A stretch of 59,543 nt of DNA from positions 1-59,543 of the forward strand of contig CAWDVO010000027.1 of the NCBI GenBank assembly GCA_963805825.1, given 5' to 3'. Below are positions 791-26,157 of the stretch, in pieces (the stretch's first letter is position 1; each line of letters starts with the position of its first letter). Under the pieces are notes generated by a model. The model was not told where the DNA came from. It made no database searches and was given only the letters and a program-made list of their open reading frames with translations. Origin of the DNA: Candidatus Brocadiaceae bacterium (GTDB lineage: Bacteria; Planctomycetota; Brocadiia; SM23-32). The translations under genes and the position numbers were made by a program.

Positions 791-835
791 GGTGTGTCTC
801 CTGGTCAGTTAGAGCGCCCGAGGGCGCTGCAGGGC

Positions 836-940
836 TTGTCATCCCGAGCGGCGACTGGCCGCGAGGGATCTCAATGCTGAGATCGCCGAGGCTCGTGCGA
901 TTGAGATTCCTCGGTCGTCCTGAGGCGACCTCGAAATGAC
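836..940. repeat. MITE/REP-like palindromic repeat element, copy A
   Basis: Terminal inverted repeats TGTCATCCCGAG...CTCGAAATGACA enclose the core GAGGGATCTCAATGC...CGATTGAGATTCCTCGG, which has an internal inverted repeat ATCTCAAT/ATTGAGAT. A second copy lies at 23069-23178. Confidence 0.6.
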
Positions 941-994
941 AGTCTGTCGCGCGCGACAGTCCCGCCGCCGGAGAGAGCATACGCCGCCCGCGCG

Positions 995-1217: not shown

Positions 1218-3329
1218 ATGAGCGTCTTGGAAGTGGCGGAAAAGCACGATACCGAGCTGAGCAGGCTGCGCAATATGGGCATCATGGCCCATATTGACGC
1301 GGGCAAGACCACCGTGGCCGAGCGCGTCCTCTACTACACCGGTCGCACCCATCGCATGGGCGACGTGGACGACGGCAACACGACCATGGACTGGATGGAC
1401 CAGGAGCAGGAGCGCGGCATCACCATCGTGAGCGCCGCGACCACGACCTCCTGGCGCAACCACCGGATCAACCTGATCGACACGCCCGGGCACGTCGACT
1501 TCACCGTCGAGGTGGAGCGTTCCCTGCGCGTGCTGGACGGCGTGGTGGCGGTCTTCTGCGGCGTGGGCGGCGTGGAGGCGCAGTCGGAGGTCGTCTGGCG
1601 CCAGGCGGCCAAGTACGGCGTGCCGGCCATCGCCTTCGTCAACAAGATGGACCGCGTCGGCGCGGACTTCGAGCGCGTGCTCACCGAGATCAACGAGCGC
1701 CTCGGCGCGCAGCCGGTCGCGGTGACCGTGCCCGTCTTCGAGGGCGGCGCCTTCGTCGGCATCCTGGACCTGGTCGCCCGCAAGGCCGTCTACTACAACG
1801 ACGAGGACCTGGGCGCCACCTTCCGCGAGATCGACATCCCCGAGTCCCTCTCCGCCGAGTTCGAGCGCTGGCACCACAAGCTCATCCACGACGTGAGCGA
1901 GGCGGACGAGGTGCTCTTCGAGAAGTACTGCCTGGACGAGCCGATCACCGAAGAGGAGCTGCGGCGCGCCCTGCGCCGGGCCACCGTCAGCGGCCAGCTC
2001 GTGCCCGTGCTCTGCGGCTCCGCCCTGAAGAACAAGGGCGTGCAGAGGCTGCTGGACAGCGTGGTGGACTACCTGCCCTCGCCGCTGGACCTGCCGCCGG
2101 TGAAGGCGCACCGCCCGGACGGCGAGGCCGTCCAGCGCCGCCACAGCGTGGAAGAGCCCCTCACGGCGCTCGCCTTCAAGGTCGTGACCGACCGCCACAG
2201 CGGCGCCCTGACCTACATCCGCGTCTACTCCGGCCGGCTCGAGGTCGGAAGCTACGTCTACAACGCCACCAAGGGCAAGCGCCAGCGCATCAGCCGCCTG
2301 ATGCTGATGCACGCCGACCGCCGGGAGCCGTGCGAGGCGCTCTGCGCCGGCGAGATCGGCGTGGCCGTCGGCCTGGCGGACACCGTTACCGGCGACACCC
2401 TCTGCGACGAGGGCGAGCCGGTGCTGCTGGAGGCCATCACCTTCCCGACGCCCGTCCTGTCCGTGAGCATCAAGCCGGGCTCCAGCAGCGAAAAGGACCG
2501 CCTGGGCACCGCGCTGGCCTGCCTGGCGGCCGAGGACCCGACCTTCACGGTGGGCTTCGACGTGGAGACCAGCGAGACCATCGTCAGCGGCATGGGCGAG
2601 CTGCACCTGGAGGTGTTCGTCGAGCGCCTGCGCCGCGAGTTCAACCTGAAGCCGGAGGTCAGCCCGCCCCGCGTGGCCTACCGCGAGACCATCCGCAAGC
2701 CGGCCCAGATCGTCCACAAGCACGTCAAGCAGACGGGCGGCCACGGGCAGTATGCCCACGTGGTGCTGGAGGTCCGGCCTCTGGAGCCGGGGAGCGGCTT
2801 CGAGTTCACCGACGAGGTCAAGGGCGGCAACGTGCCGAGGGAGTACATCCCGGCCGTCGAGCGCGGCGTGCGCGACGCCCTGGCCGAGGGCGTGCTGACC
2901 GGCTCGCCGGTCGTGGACGTGGGCGTGACCCTGGTCGACGGCAGCTACCACGAGGTGGACTCCTCGGACCTGGCCTTCCGCACCTGCGGGCGCGACGCCT
3001 TCAAGCGCGGCTTCCTGGAGGGCAAGCCGGTGCTGCTGGAGCCGGTCTTCTCGCTGAACGTGGTGGCGCCGGAGGAGTTCAGCGGCGCCGTCACCGGCAG
3101 CATCTGCCAGCGCCGCGGCCGCATCCTGGCCGTGGAGCCGCGCGGCAACACCGGCGCCCAGATCATCAAGGGCATGGTGCCGCTGGCGGAGACCTTCGGC
3201 TACGCCACCGAGGTGCGCAGCATCACGGGCGGCCGGGCGGGCTTCGACATGCGTTTCGAGCGCTACGAGCCGGTGCCGGGCAACCTGGCCGAGGAGATCA
3301 TCAAGGCGCGCCGGGCGGAAAAGGCATAA
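1218..3329 (+). CDS. fusA: elongation factor G (stand-alone copy, EF-G2-like)
   Basis: AHIDAGKTT G1 motif, DTPGHVDF, NKMDR and a full EF-G domain pattern (703 aa from M at 1218). It is not adjacent to rpsL/rpsG/tuf, so it is probably a paralog. The antisense 922-aa ORF is a GC shadow. Confidence 0.9.
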   Translation: MSVLEVAEKHDTELSRLRNMGIMAHIDAGKTTVAERVLYYTGRTHRMGDVDDGNTTMDWMDQEQERGITIVSAATTTSWRNHRINLIDTPGHVDFTVEVERSLRVLDGVVAVFCGVGGVEAQSEVVWRQAAKYGVPAIAFVNKMDRVGADFERVLTEINERLGAQPVAVTVPVFEGGAFVGILDLVARKAVYYNDEDLGATFREIDIPESLSAEFERWHHKLIHDVSEADEVLFEKYCLDEPITEEELRRALRRATVSGQLVPVLCGSALKNKGVQRLLDSVVDYLPSPLDLPPVKAHRPDGEAVQRRHSVEEPLTALAFKVVTDRHSGALTYIRVYSGRLEVGSYVYNATKGKRQRISRLMLMHADRREPCEALCAGEIGVAVGLADTVTGDTLCDEGEPVLLEAITFPTPVLSVSIKPGSSSEKDRLGTALACLAAEDPTFTVGFDVETSETIVSGMGELHLEVFVERLRREFNLKPEVSPPRVAYRETIRKPAQIVHKHVKQTGGHGQYAHVVLEVRPLEPGSGFEFTDEVKGGNVPREYIPAVERGVRDALAEGVLTGSPVVDVGVTLVDGSYHEVDSSDLAFRTCGRDAFKRGFLEGKPVLLEPVFSLNVVAPEEFSGAVTGSICQRRGRILAVEPRGNTGAQIIKGMVPLAETFGYATEVRSITGGRAGFDMRFERYEPVPGNLAEEIIKARRAEKA

Positions 3330-18378: not shown

Positions 18379-18972
18379 GGGGGAAAGGCCTCTAACGCGG
18401 ATGGGCGCGGGCCAATCGTCCTCGTCCTCGTAATCGGCCTCCAAGGTGTTGGCGTGAACTTTGTGGATAGAGTGGACTTGACGCTACTGTGTCACATCTT
18501 CAGTCACCGCGTGGCGCGTTCGGCCGGCACTGCCGAAGCTGCGAAGCAGCGGAAGAATAAAGCCTGGGGTGCAGGACGCCGTCGGCGGCCACACCCCAGG
18601 TAAGCATCGTAGGACTTTCCGCGCCCTGAAGGGGCGCAACCCCCTCGCCCTGAGTTTCGGAACTTGCTATGGGGTCGCGCCCCTTCAGGGCGCGTCGCGC
18701 TCTCGCACGGTTACCTGGGGTTTGTCCGTCCCCCTACGGCGGGCCGGCCGGCACCCCGGGCTCTATCCTCACCCGCCTTCGGCGGGAAGGCAGCGACACC
18801 GCACTCGGACATGATAGAGCAGCATGAACCACCACATCGCGACGGGCACCACGTAAGGCCATGTCCTGGTTGGCGCACTGCTCGTCGTGCCGTTGTGGTG
18901 AAGCGTTTCGCCTTTCTGCGCGTCTCCGGCGTTCCTCTGCGATCTCCGCGTTGAAAGGTCTTGCCGAGCCGC
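18379..18972. other. ~590-bp ORF-free intergenic region with strong hairpins and a DnaA-box-like motif; candidate ncRNA/regulatory region
   Basis: Hairpin CCTGGGGTG...CACCCCAGG (18563-18600). Two copies of the self-palindrome GCGCCCTGAAGGGGCGC (18621-18637 and 18677-18693). TTGTGGATAGAGTGGAC at 18461-18477 (reverse complement TATCCACAA). Confidence 0.35.
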
Positions 18973-21186: not shown

Positions 21187-21261
21187 GGCAGCGCCGACAA
21201 GGGCAAAGGCTCCGCCCCTGAAACTGGAACTCCGCATGCCCTGCCTGTAGACTCTGACGCC

Positions 21262-21507
21262 ATGAATGCCACAGACTTCATCCGCAAATGGAGCCCGGCG
21301 TCGCTGTCCGAACGTGCCGGCTCGCAATCGCACTTCAATGACCTGTGCGACCTGCTCGGCATACAGAAGCCGGCGGACGCCGACCCGGCGGGGGAGTGGT
21401 TCACCTTTGAGAAGCGGGTGGCCAAGCAGGGCGGAGGCGGGGGCTGGGCGGACGTCTGGAGGAAGGACTGCTTCGCCTGGGAATACCAGGGCCGCCTTCT
21501 TGACTGA
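21262..21507 (+). pseudogene. truncated N-terminal fragment (81 aa) of an MmeI-like type IIG restriction-modification enzyme
   Basis: FIRKWSPASLSERAGSQSHFNDLCDLLGI...WADVWRKDCFAWEYQGR resembles the N-terminal domain of MmeI-family enzymes (FSKRW...SQAKPFLIDFFEVFGI...VDLFWPGILLIEMKSRG). It stops after 81 aa with no continuation. Confidence 0.5.
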
Positions 21508-21768
21508 GGTCAGTAGTTGAGTTCCCCATCCTCTTTGCCAAGCGCAATGGCCAAGGCAAGGGCATTCCGCAGCATGAAGGAACCGTACTGGGTGGCAAGC
21601 GCAACGATTGCCTGCGCCCCTGCCGGGGTCCAGTCGTGATCCGATGAAAGGCGCCTTACGATGCCGTCCGCTTTTACTTCGCCGGTGCGGCCTCGCTCTG
21701 CAGACGCAAGCATCTCCCGGGTACTCCGAGACCCTCGGCCTAAGAAGTTGGACCTCGTTCATCGCAGC

Positions 21769-22542
21769 TCACCCCCTGAATCGATTCTCTATGTGCCACT
21801 GAAGGCGTTCCCTGCACGGCAAGAAGCGACATGGCTTCCTCACTGGTCGCCCATCGTATTGCGCGAGCAACTGACGGGTCACCGATTGCCTCGAGTCTAT
21901 GATGGCCCTTGACAGGCGAACCACAAGGTCGGCAGTCACAGTCATCAGGCCGGAATCGAAGAGCTTGTCAAATGTGGCGCTCAGACACAGACCATTCGTT
22001 GGGTCCGTTCGAAAACGCTCATCCTCGCTCCATGGCACGATGTGGCTTGCCACCAAGCACTCCGTGACAGCAAGGCCCGTAACGCAACACGTGGCATCAT
22101 AGCTTGCTAACACGGCATCGCGAAAGAAACTCTGGTGGATCCTCTGCATGGTCTGGCGCCGGACCTCAGTGGGGCCTTCAGGCTGCCGCAACTCAGGCTC
22201 CCCAAACGAAGGCCGCCCAAGCCTTCCCCTCAACTCGTTCGCTTCGCATACGAGACCATTCCAGTCCGCGTGGAATTCATCCCAGATCGCACGGTCTTGC
22301 TTGCTTGTATGCGTCAGGCCGCGTATGGCGACCTCTCTCAGGGCGGGATCGAAGGCCCCGAAATTCCCTAACTTCCTTGCCACAGCAGCGGGTGTTCGCA
22401 GAAGGTGGCTCGCCAGCTCTACCACGTCAGGGTTGGTGGCTTTCGTCTTCTGGAACGGGATGCGGCAATAGAGCTCAAATGCTAAGACCAATTCGTCCCT
22501 GCTCCAGGGAAGGCCGTACCGGGAACCTGCTATGTTCGACAT
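21769..22542 (-). CDS. HNH (His-Me finger) endonuclease family protein
   Basis: 258 aa from MSNIAGSRYGLPWSRDELVLAFELY. The CCVTG...HIVPW region is typical of HNH nucleases. Local GC (~55%) is lower than the flanks. Confidence 0.55.
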   Translation of the reverse strand: MSNIAGSRYGLPWSRDELVLAFELYCRIPFQKTKATNPDVVELASHLLRTPAAVARKLGNFGAFDPALREVAIRGLTHTSKQDRAIWDEFHADWNGLVCEANELRGRLGRPSFGEPELRQPEGPTEVRRQTMQRIHQSFFRDAVLASYDATCCVTGLAVTECLVASHIVPWSEDERFRTDPTNGLCLSATFDKLFDSGLMTVTADLVVRLSRAIIDSRQSVTRQLLAQYDGRPVRKPCRFLPCRERLQWHIENRFRG

Positions 22543-23068
22543 GGCTCTACAGTGTGCCTTGCTCGTGTCCCGGAAGTCTATGGCCCGGTCCGGATGGTGG
22601 CGAGGCAACTCCCCCCCGCCACAGCCTGGGTCCACTGCGCACCCGCAGACTTGCCGTCTTGGTCCGCCTCCAGGCGTCCCTCTGACGCAGGGCCACTGCA
22701 GGGACGTCACGCGCCTCTGTAGGTCGCTTGCCCTGTACCCTCGACCGGTCTCCGGACGAGAGCAGGTATTGTAGCACGGTAGCGGATACAGTCCAGCCGG
22801 CAATGCAAGCGGTTCGCCCGTCTTCTCGCCGCCTGTTGGCCCACCTGGTCGGCTGCGTTCGGCTCGATCTGTCGGCGTCCGAACATGGAGGACGAGGAGA
22901 TACTGGAAAAGCTCCTCGCGCTGAACCTGCGGCGGGCGAAGGGGTGATCCTACCGGCAAGACCACGGAAGACGGGGAAAGCGCTGGAGGTGGGGGAGATG
23001 CTCGGTGCCCCCCGGACACGGTTCCCCACGGGCCGGGTATCCACCTATTGAGTCGGGGGGAGCTGATG

Positions 23069-23178
23069 CTGTCATTCCGAGGCCGCCTCGGGGCGGCCGA
23101 GAGATCTCAATGCCACGATCGCCGACGTCCGCACGATTGAGATTCCTCGGCGCCAGGGAATTGCGCCTCGGAATGACA
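23069..23178. repeat. MITE/REP-like palindromic repeat element, copy B
   Basis: Perfect terminal inverted repeats TGTCATTCCGAGGC / GCCTCGGAATGACA. The core GAGAGATCTCAATGCCACGATCGCCGACGTCCGCACGATTGAGATTCCTCGG is ~85% identical to the core of copy A (865-922). Confidence 0.65.
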
Positions 23179-23814
23179 TGCCTGCGGGAGTGAGGCATCA
23201 CATCGACGGGCCGCAGCAGCATCCGAACGGTGTTCGGACAACACCGCCCAACCCGGACAGCCGAGCGCCCGCCGTTCGGCGCGTCCTCCGCGTTTGCTCG
23301 CCCTCGCTCGCCGTTGCTCGCCTATTGCGGGCCGCCCGTTCGCCCACCTGCTCGCCCACAAGGGCGGTTCCATTTCGCCGCCGTACGGCGGACCCATTGC
23401 AGGCAAGTCTGGTGGCCAGAGTCCGTGCCGTTCTCGGCGTGCCCGGCGAACTCGGCGGTCAGGGCCTCCTCCTTTTCCTGGACAGTAGCGGACAACGCGG
23501 ACACGTGTTCCCCGAGGACCGTGTACAATGGGGGACAGTTATGAACGCTGAATTATGGATTATGGATGGGGCTGCTAAGGCGGTGGCGGCTGACCGTGCG
23601 CCGGCGTTGCGTGCGCGGTCCCAGGCAGTAAGCCTTCACCAGGCAGCCCCGCCGCACCCCTCTCAGGCCCTTCTTCGTGCCCTTCGTGCGCTTCGTGGTG
23701 AAAGACGTCTTTCTGCGAAACGAATCGAAAGGCCGGCTAACGCCATGACCTGGAGCATGTTACGGCAAGATGGCCCGGACGCGGGACCGCGACGCAAACG
23801 CCTGCGTTGCCGTC

Positions 23815-23842
23815 TTGACACCGCCCGGACGCGGTCTATACT
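23815..23842 (+). promoter_or_regulatory. sigma70 promoter: -35 TTGACA, 16-bp spacer, -10 TATACT
   Basis: CGTCTTGACACCGCCCGGACGCGGTCTATACTGG lies ~20 bp upstream of the Slp-like lipoprotein gene. Confidence 0.55.
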
Positions 23843-23860: not shown

Positions 23861-24505
23861 TTGGGGGCTATGGCCATGATGCACCGTCGCGCGGGGGCGT
23901 TGAGCGTGTTGGGGGCGTTCGTGTTGCTGGGCACCGTCGGCTGCCGCTATCCCATCGCCCGCCAGTACCGGGAGGCGGCCCGCATGGGCCTGACCGTCCC
24001 GATGGTGCAGGCGGACGCGGCGGCCTACAAGGGGGACATCGTCATCTGGGGCGGCAAGATCCTCGACATAGCCAACCACGAGGGCGCCACCGAGGTCACC
24101 GTCCTCTCCTCGCCGCTCGACTCCGGTGAGGAGCCGCTCAGCGACGCCCACTCGGACGGACGCTTCATCGCCCTGACGGACCGCTTCCTGGACCCCGAGG
24201 TCTACGCGCGCGGCCGGCGGGTGACGCTGGCCGGCCAGGTCACCGGGATGGAGCAGCGGCCGGTCGGTGAGACGAAGTACGCCTATCCCGTGGTCGACAT
24301 CAAGCAGATATACGTCTGGGCGGCGTACGGCTACTACGACGACCGCTACTACTACCCCGGCACTTATGGAGGCTACGGCTCCTACGGCTGGTGGGGGCCG
24401 TGGTACGGCTACGGGGGCGGCTTCTACGGCGGCCCGTACTTCTGGGGCGGAGGGGAGGGCGAAGAGCACGAGGAGCACGAGGGCGGCCACGAGCGCGGGC
24501 GGTAG
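23861..24505 (+). CDS. Slp-family outer-membrane lipoprotein with Gly/Tyr/Trp-rich C-terminal tail
   Basis: Lipobox LLGTVGC. Matches Slp features: GDIVIWGGKILDI, DRFLDPEVYARGRRVTLAGQVTG, YAYPVVDIKQIYVW. The C-terminus is YGYYDDRYYYPGTYGGYGSYGWWGPWYGYGGGFYGGPYFWGGGEGEEHEEHEGGHERGR. Confidence 0.75.
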   Translation: MGAMAMMHRRAGALSVLGAFVLLGTVGCRYPIARQYREAARMGLTVPMVQADAAAYKGDIVIWGGKILDIANHEGATEVTVLSSPLDSGEEPLSDAHSDGRFIALTDRFLDPEVYARGRRVTLAGQVTGMEQRPVGETKYAYPVVDIKQIYVWAAYGYYDDRYYYPGTYGGYGSYGWWGPWYGYGGGFYGGPYFWGGGEGEEHEEHEGGHERGR

Positions 24506-24519
24506 CCGGCAGCCCTGCC

Positions 24520-26157
24520 TCAGCGCGTCCAGTTCTGGGCGACCGGCAGACGACGGCCGGGGCCGAAGGCCTTGTGCGTGACCCGCAGCGTGATGGGAGC
24601 CTGGCGGCGCTTGAACTCCGCGCGGTCCACCATCTTGAGAACGCGCCGCACAAGCTCCGGGTCGAAGCCTTCCTGCACGATCTCGCCGAACTCCATCACC
24701 TCCTCGATGTAGAGGTTCAGTATGGCGTCCAGCACCTCGTAGGGTGGCAGGACGTCCTGGTCGGTCTGGTCGGGCTTCAGCTCGGCTGTGGGTGCCTTCT
24801 CGAGCACGGAGCGCGTGATGGCCTCGCCGTTGCGGTTGGCGTAGCGGGCCAGCTCGTAGACGAGGGTCTTGGGCACGTCGCCGATGAGGGCCAGGCCGCC
24901 GACCATGTCGCCGTAGAGGGTGCAGTAGCCGACGGCCAGCTCGCTCTTGTTGCCGGTGGCCAGCGGCAGGATGTTGAACTTGTTGGCCATCGCCATCACC
25001 AGGTTGCCGCGGATGCGGGCCTGGACGTTCTCCTCGGCGATGCCGGGCTCCGTGCCCTCGAAGACGGGCGCCAGGGCCGCCTCGAAGGCGCGGTGGACGC
25101 CGTCGATGGGCAGCACCTTGAAGTCGACGCCCAGGTTGCGGGCGACGGCCTCGGCGTCGGTGCGGCTGAGCTGGCTGGAGACGCGGCTGGGCATGAAGAG
25201 GGCGATGACGTTCTGCGGCCCGAGCGCCTCGGCGGCGATGGCGGCCGTGAGGGCGGAGTCCACGCCGCCGCTCATGCCGAAGACGACCTGGCGGAATCCG
25301 CACTTGCGGCAGTAGTCGTGCAGGCCGAGCACGAGGGCGCGCCAGACGTCCTCGACCGTGTGCGGCTCCGCCGGGGGCACAGGCGAGCCGGCCTGCTCGG
25401 TATCCACGATCATCAGGTCCTCGCAGAACGCGGCGGCCTCGGCGGTGACGTGGCCGGTGGCGTCCACGAACAGGCTGCGTCCCTCGAAGATGAGCTGGTC
25501 GTTGCCGCCCACGAGGTTCTGGTAGGCGACGGGCACGGCGTGGCCTCCGGCCATGGTGCCCAGCATGCGGCGGCGCAGCGTCTGGCGGCCGGCGGCGTAG
25601 GGGCTGGCCGCGATGTTGACGATGAGGCGGGCGCCGGCCCGGACGAGTTCGGCCACCGGGTCACGCTCGTAGAGGCGCTGGGGCCAGAAACGCTCGTCGT
25701 TCCAGGCGTCCTCGCAGATGGTCAGGCCGATGGGCACGCCGTCCAGGTCGAAGGGGGCGTTCTCCTCGGCGGGCTGGAAGTAGCGCATCTCGTCGAAGAC
25801 GTCGTAGTTCGGCAGCAGCATCTTGTCGCGGCGGTGGACGATGCTGCCGTTCTGGAGCACCGAGGCGGAGTTGGCGGCCCGCCGGCCGTTGGGGGAGGAG
25901 GTGCGGGAGAGGTGGCCGACGATGACGGCGATGCCGTCGGCACAGGCGGCCAGCTCGCGGACGGCCTCCTCATTGGCGCGCAGGAAGGCGGGGCGTTCGG
26001 CGAGGTCCTGGGGGGGATAGCCGCTGAGGGTCAGCTCGGGCAGCAGGACCAGGTCGGCCCCGCGCGCGGCGGCCTCGCGGACGGCGTGCTGGGCCCGGCG
26101 CAGATTCCCTTGAATGTCGCCGACGGTCGTGTTAACTTGAGCGAACGCGACTTTCAT
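24520..26157 (-). CDS. nadE: glutamine-dependent NAD+ synthetase (N-terminal CN-hydrolase domain + NadE domain)
   Basis: 545 aa. Nitrilase-like N-terminus (LPELTLSGY...CEDAW) and NAD-synthetase PP-loop SGGVDS. Confidence 0.9.
   Translation of the reverse strand: MKVAFAQVNTTVGDIQGNLRRAQHAVREAAARGADLVLLPELTLSGYPPQDLAERPAFLRANEEAVRELAACADGIAVIVGHLSRTSSPNGRRAANSASVLQNGSIVHRRDKMLLPNYDVFDEMRYFQPAEENAPFDLDGVPIGLTICEDAWNDERFWPQRLYERDPVAELVRAGARLIVNIAASPYAAGRQTLRRRMLGTMAGGHAVPVAYQNLVGGNDQLIFEGRSLFVDATGHVTAEAAAFCEDLMIVDTEQAGSPVPPAEPHTVEDVWRALVLGLHDYCRKCGFRQVVFGMSGGVDSALTAAIAAEALGPQNVIALFMPSRVSSQLSRTDAEAVARNLGVDFKVLPIDGVHRAFEAALAPVFEGTEPGIAEENVQARIRGNLVMAMANKFNILPLATGNKSELAVGYCTLYGDMVGGLALIGDVPKTLVYELARYANRNGEAITRSVLEKAPTAELKPDQTDQDVLPPYEVLDAILNLYIEEVMEFGEIVQEGFDPELVRRVLKMVDRAEFKRRQAPITLRVTHKAFGPGRRLPVAQNWTR

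Follow-up and report, generated by a model that had tools for sequence, protein, structure and literature searches.

The window analysed here, a complete 59,543-bp contig with a GC content of about 68%, carries two copies of a palindromic repeat, each made of two smaller, tagged palindromic units in inverted orientation. Together with units in a sibling genome, they belong to a dispersed family of dimers and singletons that turns over between relatives. The family is probably best read as a non-coding, DNA-level palindromic repeat of the REP/REPIN type that is restricted to its lineage. REP/REPIN-type palindromic repeats are well known in Proteobacteria and poorly charted in Planctomycetota and in uncultured lineages. 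The closest named homologues come from MAGs with the labels Brocadiia, Phycisphaerae or Planctomycetota. Repeats of this kind are ordinary in bacteria; from this lineage none had been described before.

The two copies and their genomic setting

Sequence reading and alignment of both regions place the two elements on the + strand at 837–941 (copy A, 105 nt) and 23070–23178 (copy B, 109 nt). The original prediction had named at least two copies, at 836–940 and 23069–23178, and these coordinates hold with an offset within 1 nt. A 48-nt pattern derived from the positions that both cores share has two exact matches in the window, compared to 0.00 expected from 100 dinucleotide-preserving shuffles. 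By direct count the core differs at 9 positions of about 53 nt (83% identity), close to the predicted core of about 52 bp at about 85%, while over their full length the elements agree in 85 of 113 columns (75%). The outer repeat TGTCATYCCGAG/CTCGRAATGACA, allowing at most one mismatch over 12 nt, is confined to the ends of the two elements (4 matches, 0.5 expected). It gives terminal inverted repeats of 12–13 bp with TGTCATYCCGAG(G) ends, which, as predicted, are perfect in copy B (13 bp); those of copy A have mismatches. The inner inverted repeat that had been proposed, ATCTCAAT/ATTGAGAT, is present as well. Chance likeness of the two sequences can be practically dismissed, since the 48-nt core pattern appears in 0 of 100 shuffles and related units are found in the sibling genome. 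The original prediction had linked chance similarity to a lack of copies in relatives, and that case is ruled out by the units in this sibling, which is about 95% identical.

Covariance models of the whole element (R1) and of the half-unit (R2), searched without filters, reveal no third copy anywhere in the 59.5 kb of the window. The parts of the two copies, with their model scores, are as follows.

837..941, + strand: copy A, full element, head-to-head dimer; strand named from the asymmetric spacer; R1 118.9 bits
837..869, + strand: copy A left unit; TGTC tag (837–840), ATCCC, GA, stem GCGGC / loop GACTG / stem GCCGC, GA, GGGAT; R2 49 bits; alignment A5
870..905, + strand: copy A spacer, 36 nt; CTCAATGC-TGA-GATCGCCGA-GGCTCGTGCG-ATTGAG; complementary ends CTCAAT/ATTGAG
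906..941, − strand: copy A right unit; tag-first TGTC, ATTTC, GA, stem GGTCGCC / loop TCAG / stem GACGACC, GA, GGAAT; R2 56.3 bits
23070..23178, + strand: copy B, full element, head-to-head dimer; R1 130.1 bits
23070..23105, + strand: copy B left unit; TGTC, ATTCC, GA, stem GGCCGCC / loop TCGG / stem GGCGGCC, GA, GAGAT; R2 57.9 bits; alignment A5
23106..23141, + strand: copy B spacer, 36 nt; CTCAATGC-CAC-GATCGCCGA-CGTCCGCACG-ATTGAG
23142..23178, − strand: copy B right unit; tag-first TGTC, ATTCC, GA, stem GGCGC / loop AATTCCCTG / stem GCGCC, GA, GGAAT; R2 54.4 bits; alignment A5

The element has no coding capacity, and gene calls bear out that both copies are intergenic. Rfam gives no family match at the gathering score in the window, nor at E≤10 around either copy. 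The larger open reading frames of the window are all housekeeping genes, and no transposase of any kind was found in the window or among the called genes of about 140 kb of related loci.

Copy A lies between two divergent genes, which encode an M55 D-aminopeptidase (5–790, −) and a paralog of EF-G (~1218–3329, +), and is 46 nt upstream of the peptidase start codon. A sigma-70-like promoter at 1004–976 (−), conserved in relatives, is found upstream of copy A. Because copy A is downstream of this minus-strand promoter, it is probably transcribed within the 5′ UTR of the peptidase gene. The copy sits in a 162-nt lineage-specific segment, of which 802–836 and 942–963 are the flanks. Two small perfect hairpins, AGCGCCC-GAG-GGCGCT (~812–828) and CTGTCGCGCGCGACAG (944–959), stand beside it and are missing in the relatives of about 89% identity. 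Further on, about 220 nt upstream of the EF-G paralog (1000–1217) are strongly conserved where the proteins are only 84–93% identical (alignment A2). At 99.5%, its identity to the sibling exceeds that of the flanking genes (96–97%). This region could be a conserved leader or regulatory RNA, and it has no Rfam match at the gathering score.

Copy B lies in a non-coding stretch of 1.3 kb that extends from an HNH restriction-type gene (21769–~22560, −) to the gene of an Slp lipoprotein (23861–24505, +). It lies 122 nt past the old stop codon of a restriction-gene remnant, and a strong promoter-like site for Slp (23815–23842) is downstream of it. It had been predicted that copy B marks the edge of a low-GC islet. 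The low-GC trough itself is present (21700–22600), but its edge was drawn too loosely: given this trough and the break in homology with the sibling at 22873/22874, copy B lies 200–450 nt outside the islet. To the right of copy B, the heptamer GCTCGCC occurs about five times at 23296–23350 in the same non-coding stretch.

The neighbouring segment (window 21220–22948, compared to L055 12063–15054 in the sibling) has undergone a defence-gene swap. At this place the sibling has a type IIG restriction-methyltransferase of about 1000 amino acids, called as fragments (PADLOC REase_MTase_IIG). The window keeps the first ~90 codons of the methyltransferase (21220–21489, 86% identical) and its last 25 codons (22874–22947), and between them has a lower-GC segment of 1.4 kb with the HNH restriction-type gene (PADLOC HNH 5e-80). 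On the other side, the ~89% relatives have different neighbours upstream of Slp (BNR/sortilin-like, NIF3), which places a synteny break at about window position 23812. These relatives also have a gene with a hemerythrin domain between NadE and Slp (L052 11652–12373), which is missing in the window (24503–24520).

Anatomy and covariation of the unit

The left and right halves of each copy are reverse complements of one another at 71–78% identity. Alignment A5 brings together seven units, namely the four halves in the window and three units from sibling locus L055, over a module of about 45 nt. Read from the outside in, the unit of about 35 nt consists of an unpaired TGTC, then AT-YCC, GA, and a G followed by a variable GC stem of 4–6 bp, then the loop, the returning stem with its C, a second GA, and GRR-AT. 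ATYCC pairs with GRRAT, and the two GA dinucleotides face each other in a 2×2 internal loop. The stem is made of 5 bp, the 2×2 internal loop and another 5–7 bp, and the loops measure 4–9 nt.

Some parts of this unit do not vary while others vary in a paired manner. AGAT, TCG, CTC and ATGACA are invariant in A5, and all seven units end in ATGACA, which reads TGTCAT when the tag is placed first, with TGTC unpaired and AT opening the stem. The tag, the opening A-T and T-A pairs, the GA/GA internal loop and the CGAG/CTCG positions are likewise the same in every unit, and pairs 14-46 (A-U) and 15-45 (U-A) are invariant in 7/7. The inner GC stem and the loop are free in sequence, with their pairing kept. 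Over the eight scored pairs, 94.6% of cells are in standard pairs, compared to at most 48% when the partner is slid by 1–3 columns as a control. In four of these eight pairs both partners have changed (T-A to C-G, C-G to T-A, G-C to C-G, and C-G/G-C/U-A). The non-Watson-Crick cells comprise two that are wobble-compatible on one strand and two that are so on the other. This even split gives no sign of selection for one transcribed strand, and a DNA element fits it better than an RNA made from one strand.

The full element consists of two such units, with their tags on the outside, flanking a conserved spacer. The spacers of copies A and B have the same length of 36 nt and agree at 28 of 36 positions, and they share the pattern CTCAATGC-NNN-GATCGCCGA-...-CGATTGAG with complementary ends. 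The tail that follows the palindrome is CTC(AAT) in the four dimer units and other bases in the singletons. Since the units are placed head to head and the spacer ends are complementary, one strand can fold either as a long hairpin or as a four-way junction. RNA folding, which had been named as a check alongside the original prediction, gives z-scores of −5.2 for copy A and −5.4 for copy B against shuffles, and folding with DNA parameters gives −4.4 and −4.8. Copy A is predicted to form the four-way junction or the long hairpin at −57 kcal/mol as RNA and −29 as DNA. RNA folding of copy B favours the long hairpin (−59.7 kcal/mol) over the junction (−49.4), while DNA parameters predict the four-way junction for both copies.

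Presence and absence among relatives

Loci from relatives were obtained via protein clusters at 90% identity. The closest is a sibling genome (ENA ERZ25039500 contig_21826; loci L054, L055 and L056), which is about 95% identical to the window and collinear with it, and other relatives (L048, L049, L051, L052 and L053) are about 84–91% identical. The assemblies of the ~89% relatives are ERZ25039549 and GCA_964390035.1. Copy A has an ortholog in the sibling (L054 9848–9956, 120.6 bits) that differs by 1 nt: A934 is G there, and a C-G pair is thereby restored. In L048 and L049, relatives of about 89% identity, copy A is missing, and 26 nt stand in place of 162 nt in the window (802–963), with the promoter, the ribosome-binding site and the gene order all kept. 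Copy B is missing in the sibling, where 54 nt (L055 12008–12061) correspond to 265 nt of the window (22949–23213).

The sibling in turn has three units in segments without a counterpart in the window. These are L055 15357–15406, which is part of a degenerate full-length copy at 15315–15406, together with L055 15528–15578 and L055 17912–17961. All three are intergenic, upstream of trpB or downstream of trpA. The observed density is low, with two dimers per 59.5 kb in the window, and one dimer with three single or degenerate units per 62 kb in the sibling. No unit turned up in the 20.7 kb of sibling locus L056, nor in about 80 kb from the ~89% relatives and about 270 kb of unrelated loci. Presence or absence differs among close relatives at all five sites examined. 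Therefore, the family is real and, as far as sampled, lineage-restricted, and its copies are gained and lost on the timescale that separates genomes of 89–95% identity.

The sites themselves have been altered by more than the element. There is no clean empty site for A or B; the flanks differ as well, and the replaced segments of 162 and 265 nt leave no clean footprint of insertion or excision. A consistent target duplication was not found at these two independent sites, where TGC stands on both sides of copy B and copy A is flanked by GCT and GTC. At the "empty" site B of the sibling (L055 12008–12061, reverse strand), TGTCGACACCGAGGATC directly follows the stop codon and resembles the element end TGTCATTCCGAGG; it could be the remnant of a deleted copy or a preferred target. 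Upstream of the sibling trpB, a family member is adjoined by a segment of about 180 nt (L055 15130–15312) that is bounded by a 21-nt inverted repeat, CTAAGAGCCTCTAACAGAATG / CATTCTGTTGGAGGCTCTAAG. This block is missing in the window.

Public collections yielded no further members. Among GTDB species genomes, the exact pattern GATCTCAATGCN{15,30}CGATTGAGAT has four matches, all of them chance matches and none with the rest of the element. In JGI metagenomes, GATCTCAATGCNNNGATCGCCGA, in hindsight an ill-chosen pattern, has 42 matches, and in none of them is the remainder of the element present; the majority resemble coding sequence that in frame would give D-L-N-A-x-I-A-D/E. These two scans are weak negatives, because exact patterns miss diverged copies and the sibling units would not match them either. 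One chance match to CGATTGAGATTCCTCGG was found in viral contigs, blastn against a plasmid collection gave no match, and a string search of the literature with the terminal 12-mers returned only unrelated primer sequences.

Classification and rival explanations

In architecture, the element is best read as closest to the head-to-head dimers of CGTC/TGTC-tagged REPs, although its stem-loop is longer. The CGTC-tagged REP superfamily was described by Di Nocera et al. 2013 (PMC3733652). Its members have an unpaired terminal tetranucleotide at one end of the stem-loop, CGTC or the variants TGTC (common) or CCTC, a stem of 8–9 bp that opens with A-T pairs at positions 1 and 2, a loop of 4–5 nt, and an unpaired 3-nt tail with the consensus CCA (PMC3733652). 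Some stand alone, but most form head-to-head dimers around a conserved spacer of 20–100 bp whose ends can pair; they are intergenic, number tens to thousands of copies per genome, covary in their stems between copies, and have no known dedicated transposase (PMC3733652). The class was not reported from Planctomycetes in that work (PMC3733652).

The present units share with these REPs (PMC3733652) the TGTC tag, the stem opened by A-T pairs, the intergenic location and the covarying stems. Copies A and B, like the L054 ortholog, are dimers whose tags face outward and whose spacers have an equal length of 36 nt and complementary ends. They differ in the composite stem (5 bp, the 2×2 GA/GA loop and 5–7 bp, instead of 8–9 bp), in loops of 4–9 nt instead of 4–5, and in the tail CTC(AAT) instead of CCA (PMC3733652). 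Because of the longer composite stem, the variable loops and the other tail, they are filed as a separate new family and not under CGTC-1 to CGTC-4. There is also a likeness to the REPINs mobilised by RAYTs (Bertels & Rainey 2011, PMC3116915), in which two inverted REP units and a spacer form a hairpin of about 100 nt, singletons resemble decayed doublets, and presence varies between related genomes. In the REPIN/RAYT system, GTAG adjoins the REP hairpin and a single-copy RAYT gene, which encodes a Y1 HUH transposase, is flanked by the REPs. Here, no unit has GTAG at either end, and no RAYT gene is found in the window or among the called genes of the related loci.

Other known systems were considered and rejected. 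An integron attC site does not fit by reading, as GTTRRRY/RYYYAAC cores and an integrase are both missing and the limits of the adjacent gene swap are homology breaks, not the element. A HEARO/omega RNA linked to the nearby HNH gene was rejected as well, given that there is no Rfam match and that the HNH protein is of restriction type (PADLOC HNH / type II REase) and not IscB. The Correia/NEMIS MITEs of Neisseria are non-coding elements of about 100–150 bp with terminal inverted repeats, which are intergenic, can sit in 5′ UTRs and alter transcripts. The present element is similar in size, in being non-coding and intergenic, and in its terminal inverted repeats. Unlike Correia/NEMIS, it has no consistent target duplication, each arm is an autonomous tagged hairpin, and half-elements exist.

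Three rival explanations of the family, as a MITE, a host-kept site or a structured RNA, each fit fewer observations than the REP/REPIN type. The original prediction had proposed a MITE or a REP/BIME-type family, and this broad class is supported by further members at intergenic sites of the sibling, by variable presence, and by non-coding sequence with no Rfam match. The build from two inverted copies of a small tagged palindrome agrees better with REP/REPIN than with a classical MITE that has terminal inverted repeats (TIR) and target duplication. In such a MITE, the 12–13-bp TGTCATYCCGAG(G) ends would be the binding sites of a DDE transposase, encoded by a parent insertion sequence at another place in the genome, and insertion would proceed by cut-and-paste or copy-and-paste with a short target duplication. 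Many DDE elements have ends of the form 5′-TG...CA-3′, and so does this one; its size and non-coding nature also fit, and copy B has a terminal repeat free of mismatches over 13 bp and TGC on both of its flanks. A 3-bp match at one site is weak evidence, however, with the flanks of copy A being different (GCT vs GTC), and clean empty sites were not found at A or B. In addition, the sibling has single units with only one "end", and each half is a tagged palindrome with covarying stems, which binding at a TIR does not need. We therefore regard the classical MITE as unlikely.

It is quite unlikely that the copies are non-mobile repeats kept by the host as sites for a nucleoid or topology protein, as transcription terminators or as mRNA-stabilising hairpins. 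Roles of this sort are documented for REPs in other bacteria (PMC3733652), and the invariant tag and CGAG/GA-GA motifs with covarying stems suggest recognition of sequence plus shape. The intergenic region of copy A is also 99.5% identical between window and sibling, compared to 96–97% for the flanking genes; as evidence for selective conservation of copy A this was rejected, because the entire region and not the element alone has this identity. Against a host role, the elements are missing at orthologous sites of close relatives, and their neighbours are unrelated (the peptidase and EF-G paralog; the restriction-gene remnant and Slp; trpBA). The hairpins are not followed by a T-run, and a place between divergent genes, such as that of copy A, is not the position of a terminator. 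A structured RNA transcribed from one strand, either a cis-regulatory leader or a small RNA gene, is very unlikely, even though the predicted structure is strong (z of about −5), compensatory changes are present, and the promoter at 1004–976 (−) would make copy A part of the 5′ UTR of the M55 peptidase. The element is nearly symmetric, its wobble pairs in A5 show no strand bias, its gene contexts are unrelated, and it has no Rfam match. Moreover, it is missing from orthologous leaders that keep the same promoter and ribosome-binding site, and the Slp promoter lies downstream of copy B.

If the family is of the REP/REPIN type, copies would arise or vanish at intergenic sites through an enzyme that acts in trans on single-stranded DNA. 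This enzyme would recognise the hairpin together with the invariant tag and CGAG motifs, and may be a HUH tyrosine transposase of the RAYT/IS200-IS605 type encoded elsewhere in the genome, or another enzyme. Alternatively, the copies may be relics that such activity left behind and that are now decaying. With only 75% overall identity between the copies, recent transposition is not demonstrated. A copy that lies inside a transcription unit would enter the transcript as a stable hairpin, with possible side effects on mRNA stability or translation. A more far-reaching proposal, with a small chance of being correct, is that this is an active, previously undescribed family of TGTC-tagged REP doublets in uncultured Planctomycetota, in which the tag, CGAG and the tandem GA-GA loop would be the recognition and cleavage signals of a single-strand DNA enzyme. 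If true, it would offer a way into the question of how CGTC-class REPs, "orphans" with no known transposase, are generated and mobilised.

The family offers a clean example of a composite unit, in which a tag and an unchanging GA/GA internal loop are joined to a stem that covaries freely, and its gain and loss are visible between genomes of 89–95% identity. Its practical value is limited, and the family alone opens no new question. Its copies point to variable intergenic places, one of which adjoins a restriction-gene swap; such repeats can confuse assembly and gene calling; and the unit model could serve for family counts and for a search for the enzyme in complete genomes. The window also contains a second, unrelated small palindromic repeat at 18600–18790, GCGCCCTGAAGGGGCGC ... 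GCGCCCCTTCAGGGCGC, which has blastn matches of 75–86% at non-syntenic places in the relatives (L052/L053 18320–18433 and L054 12400–12456).
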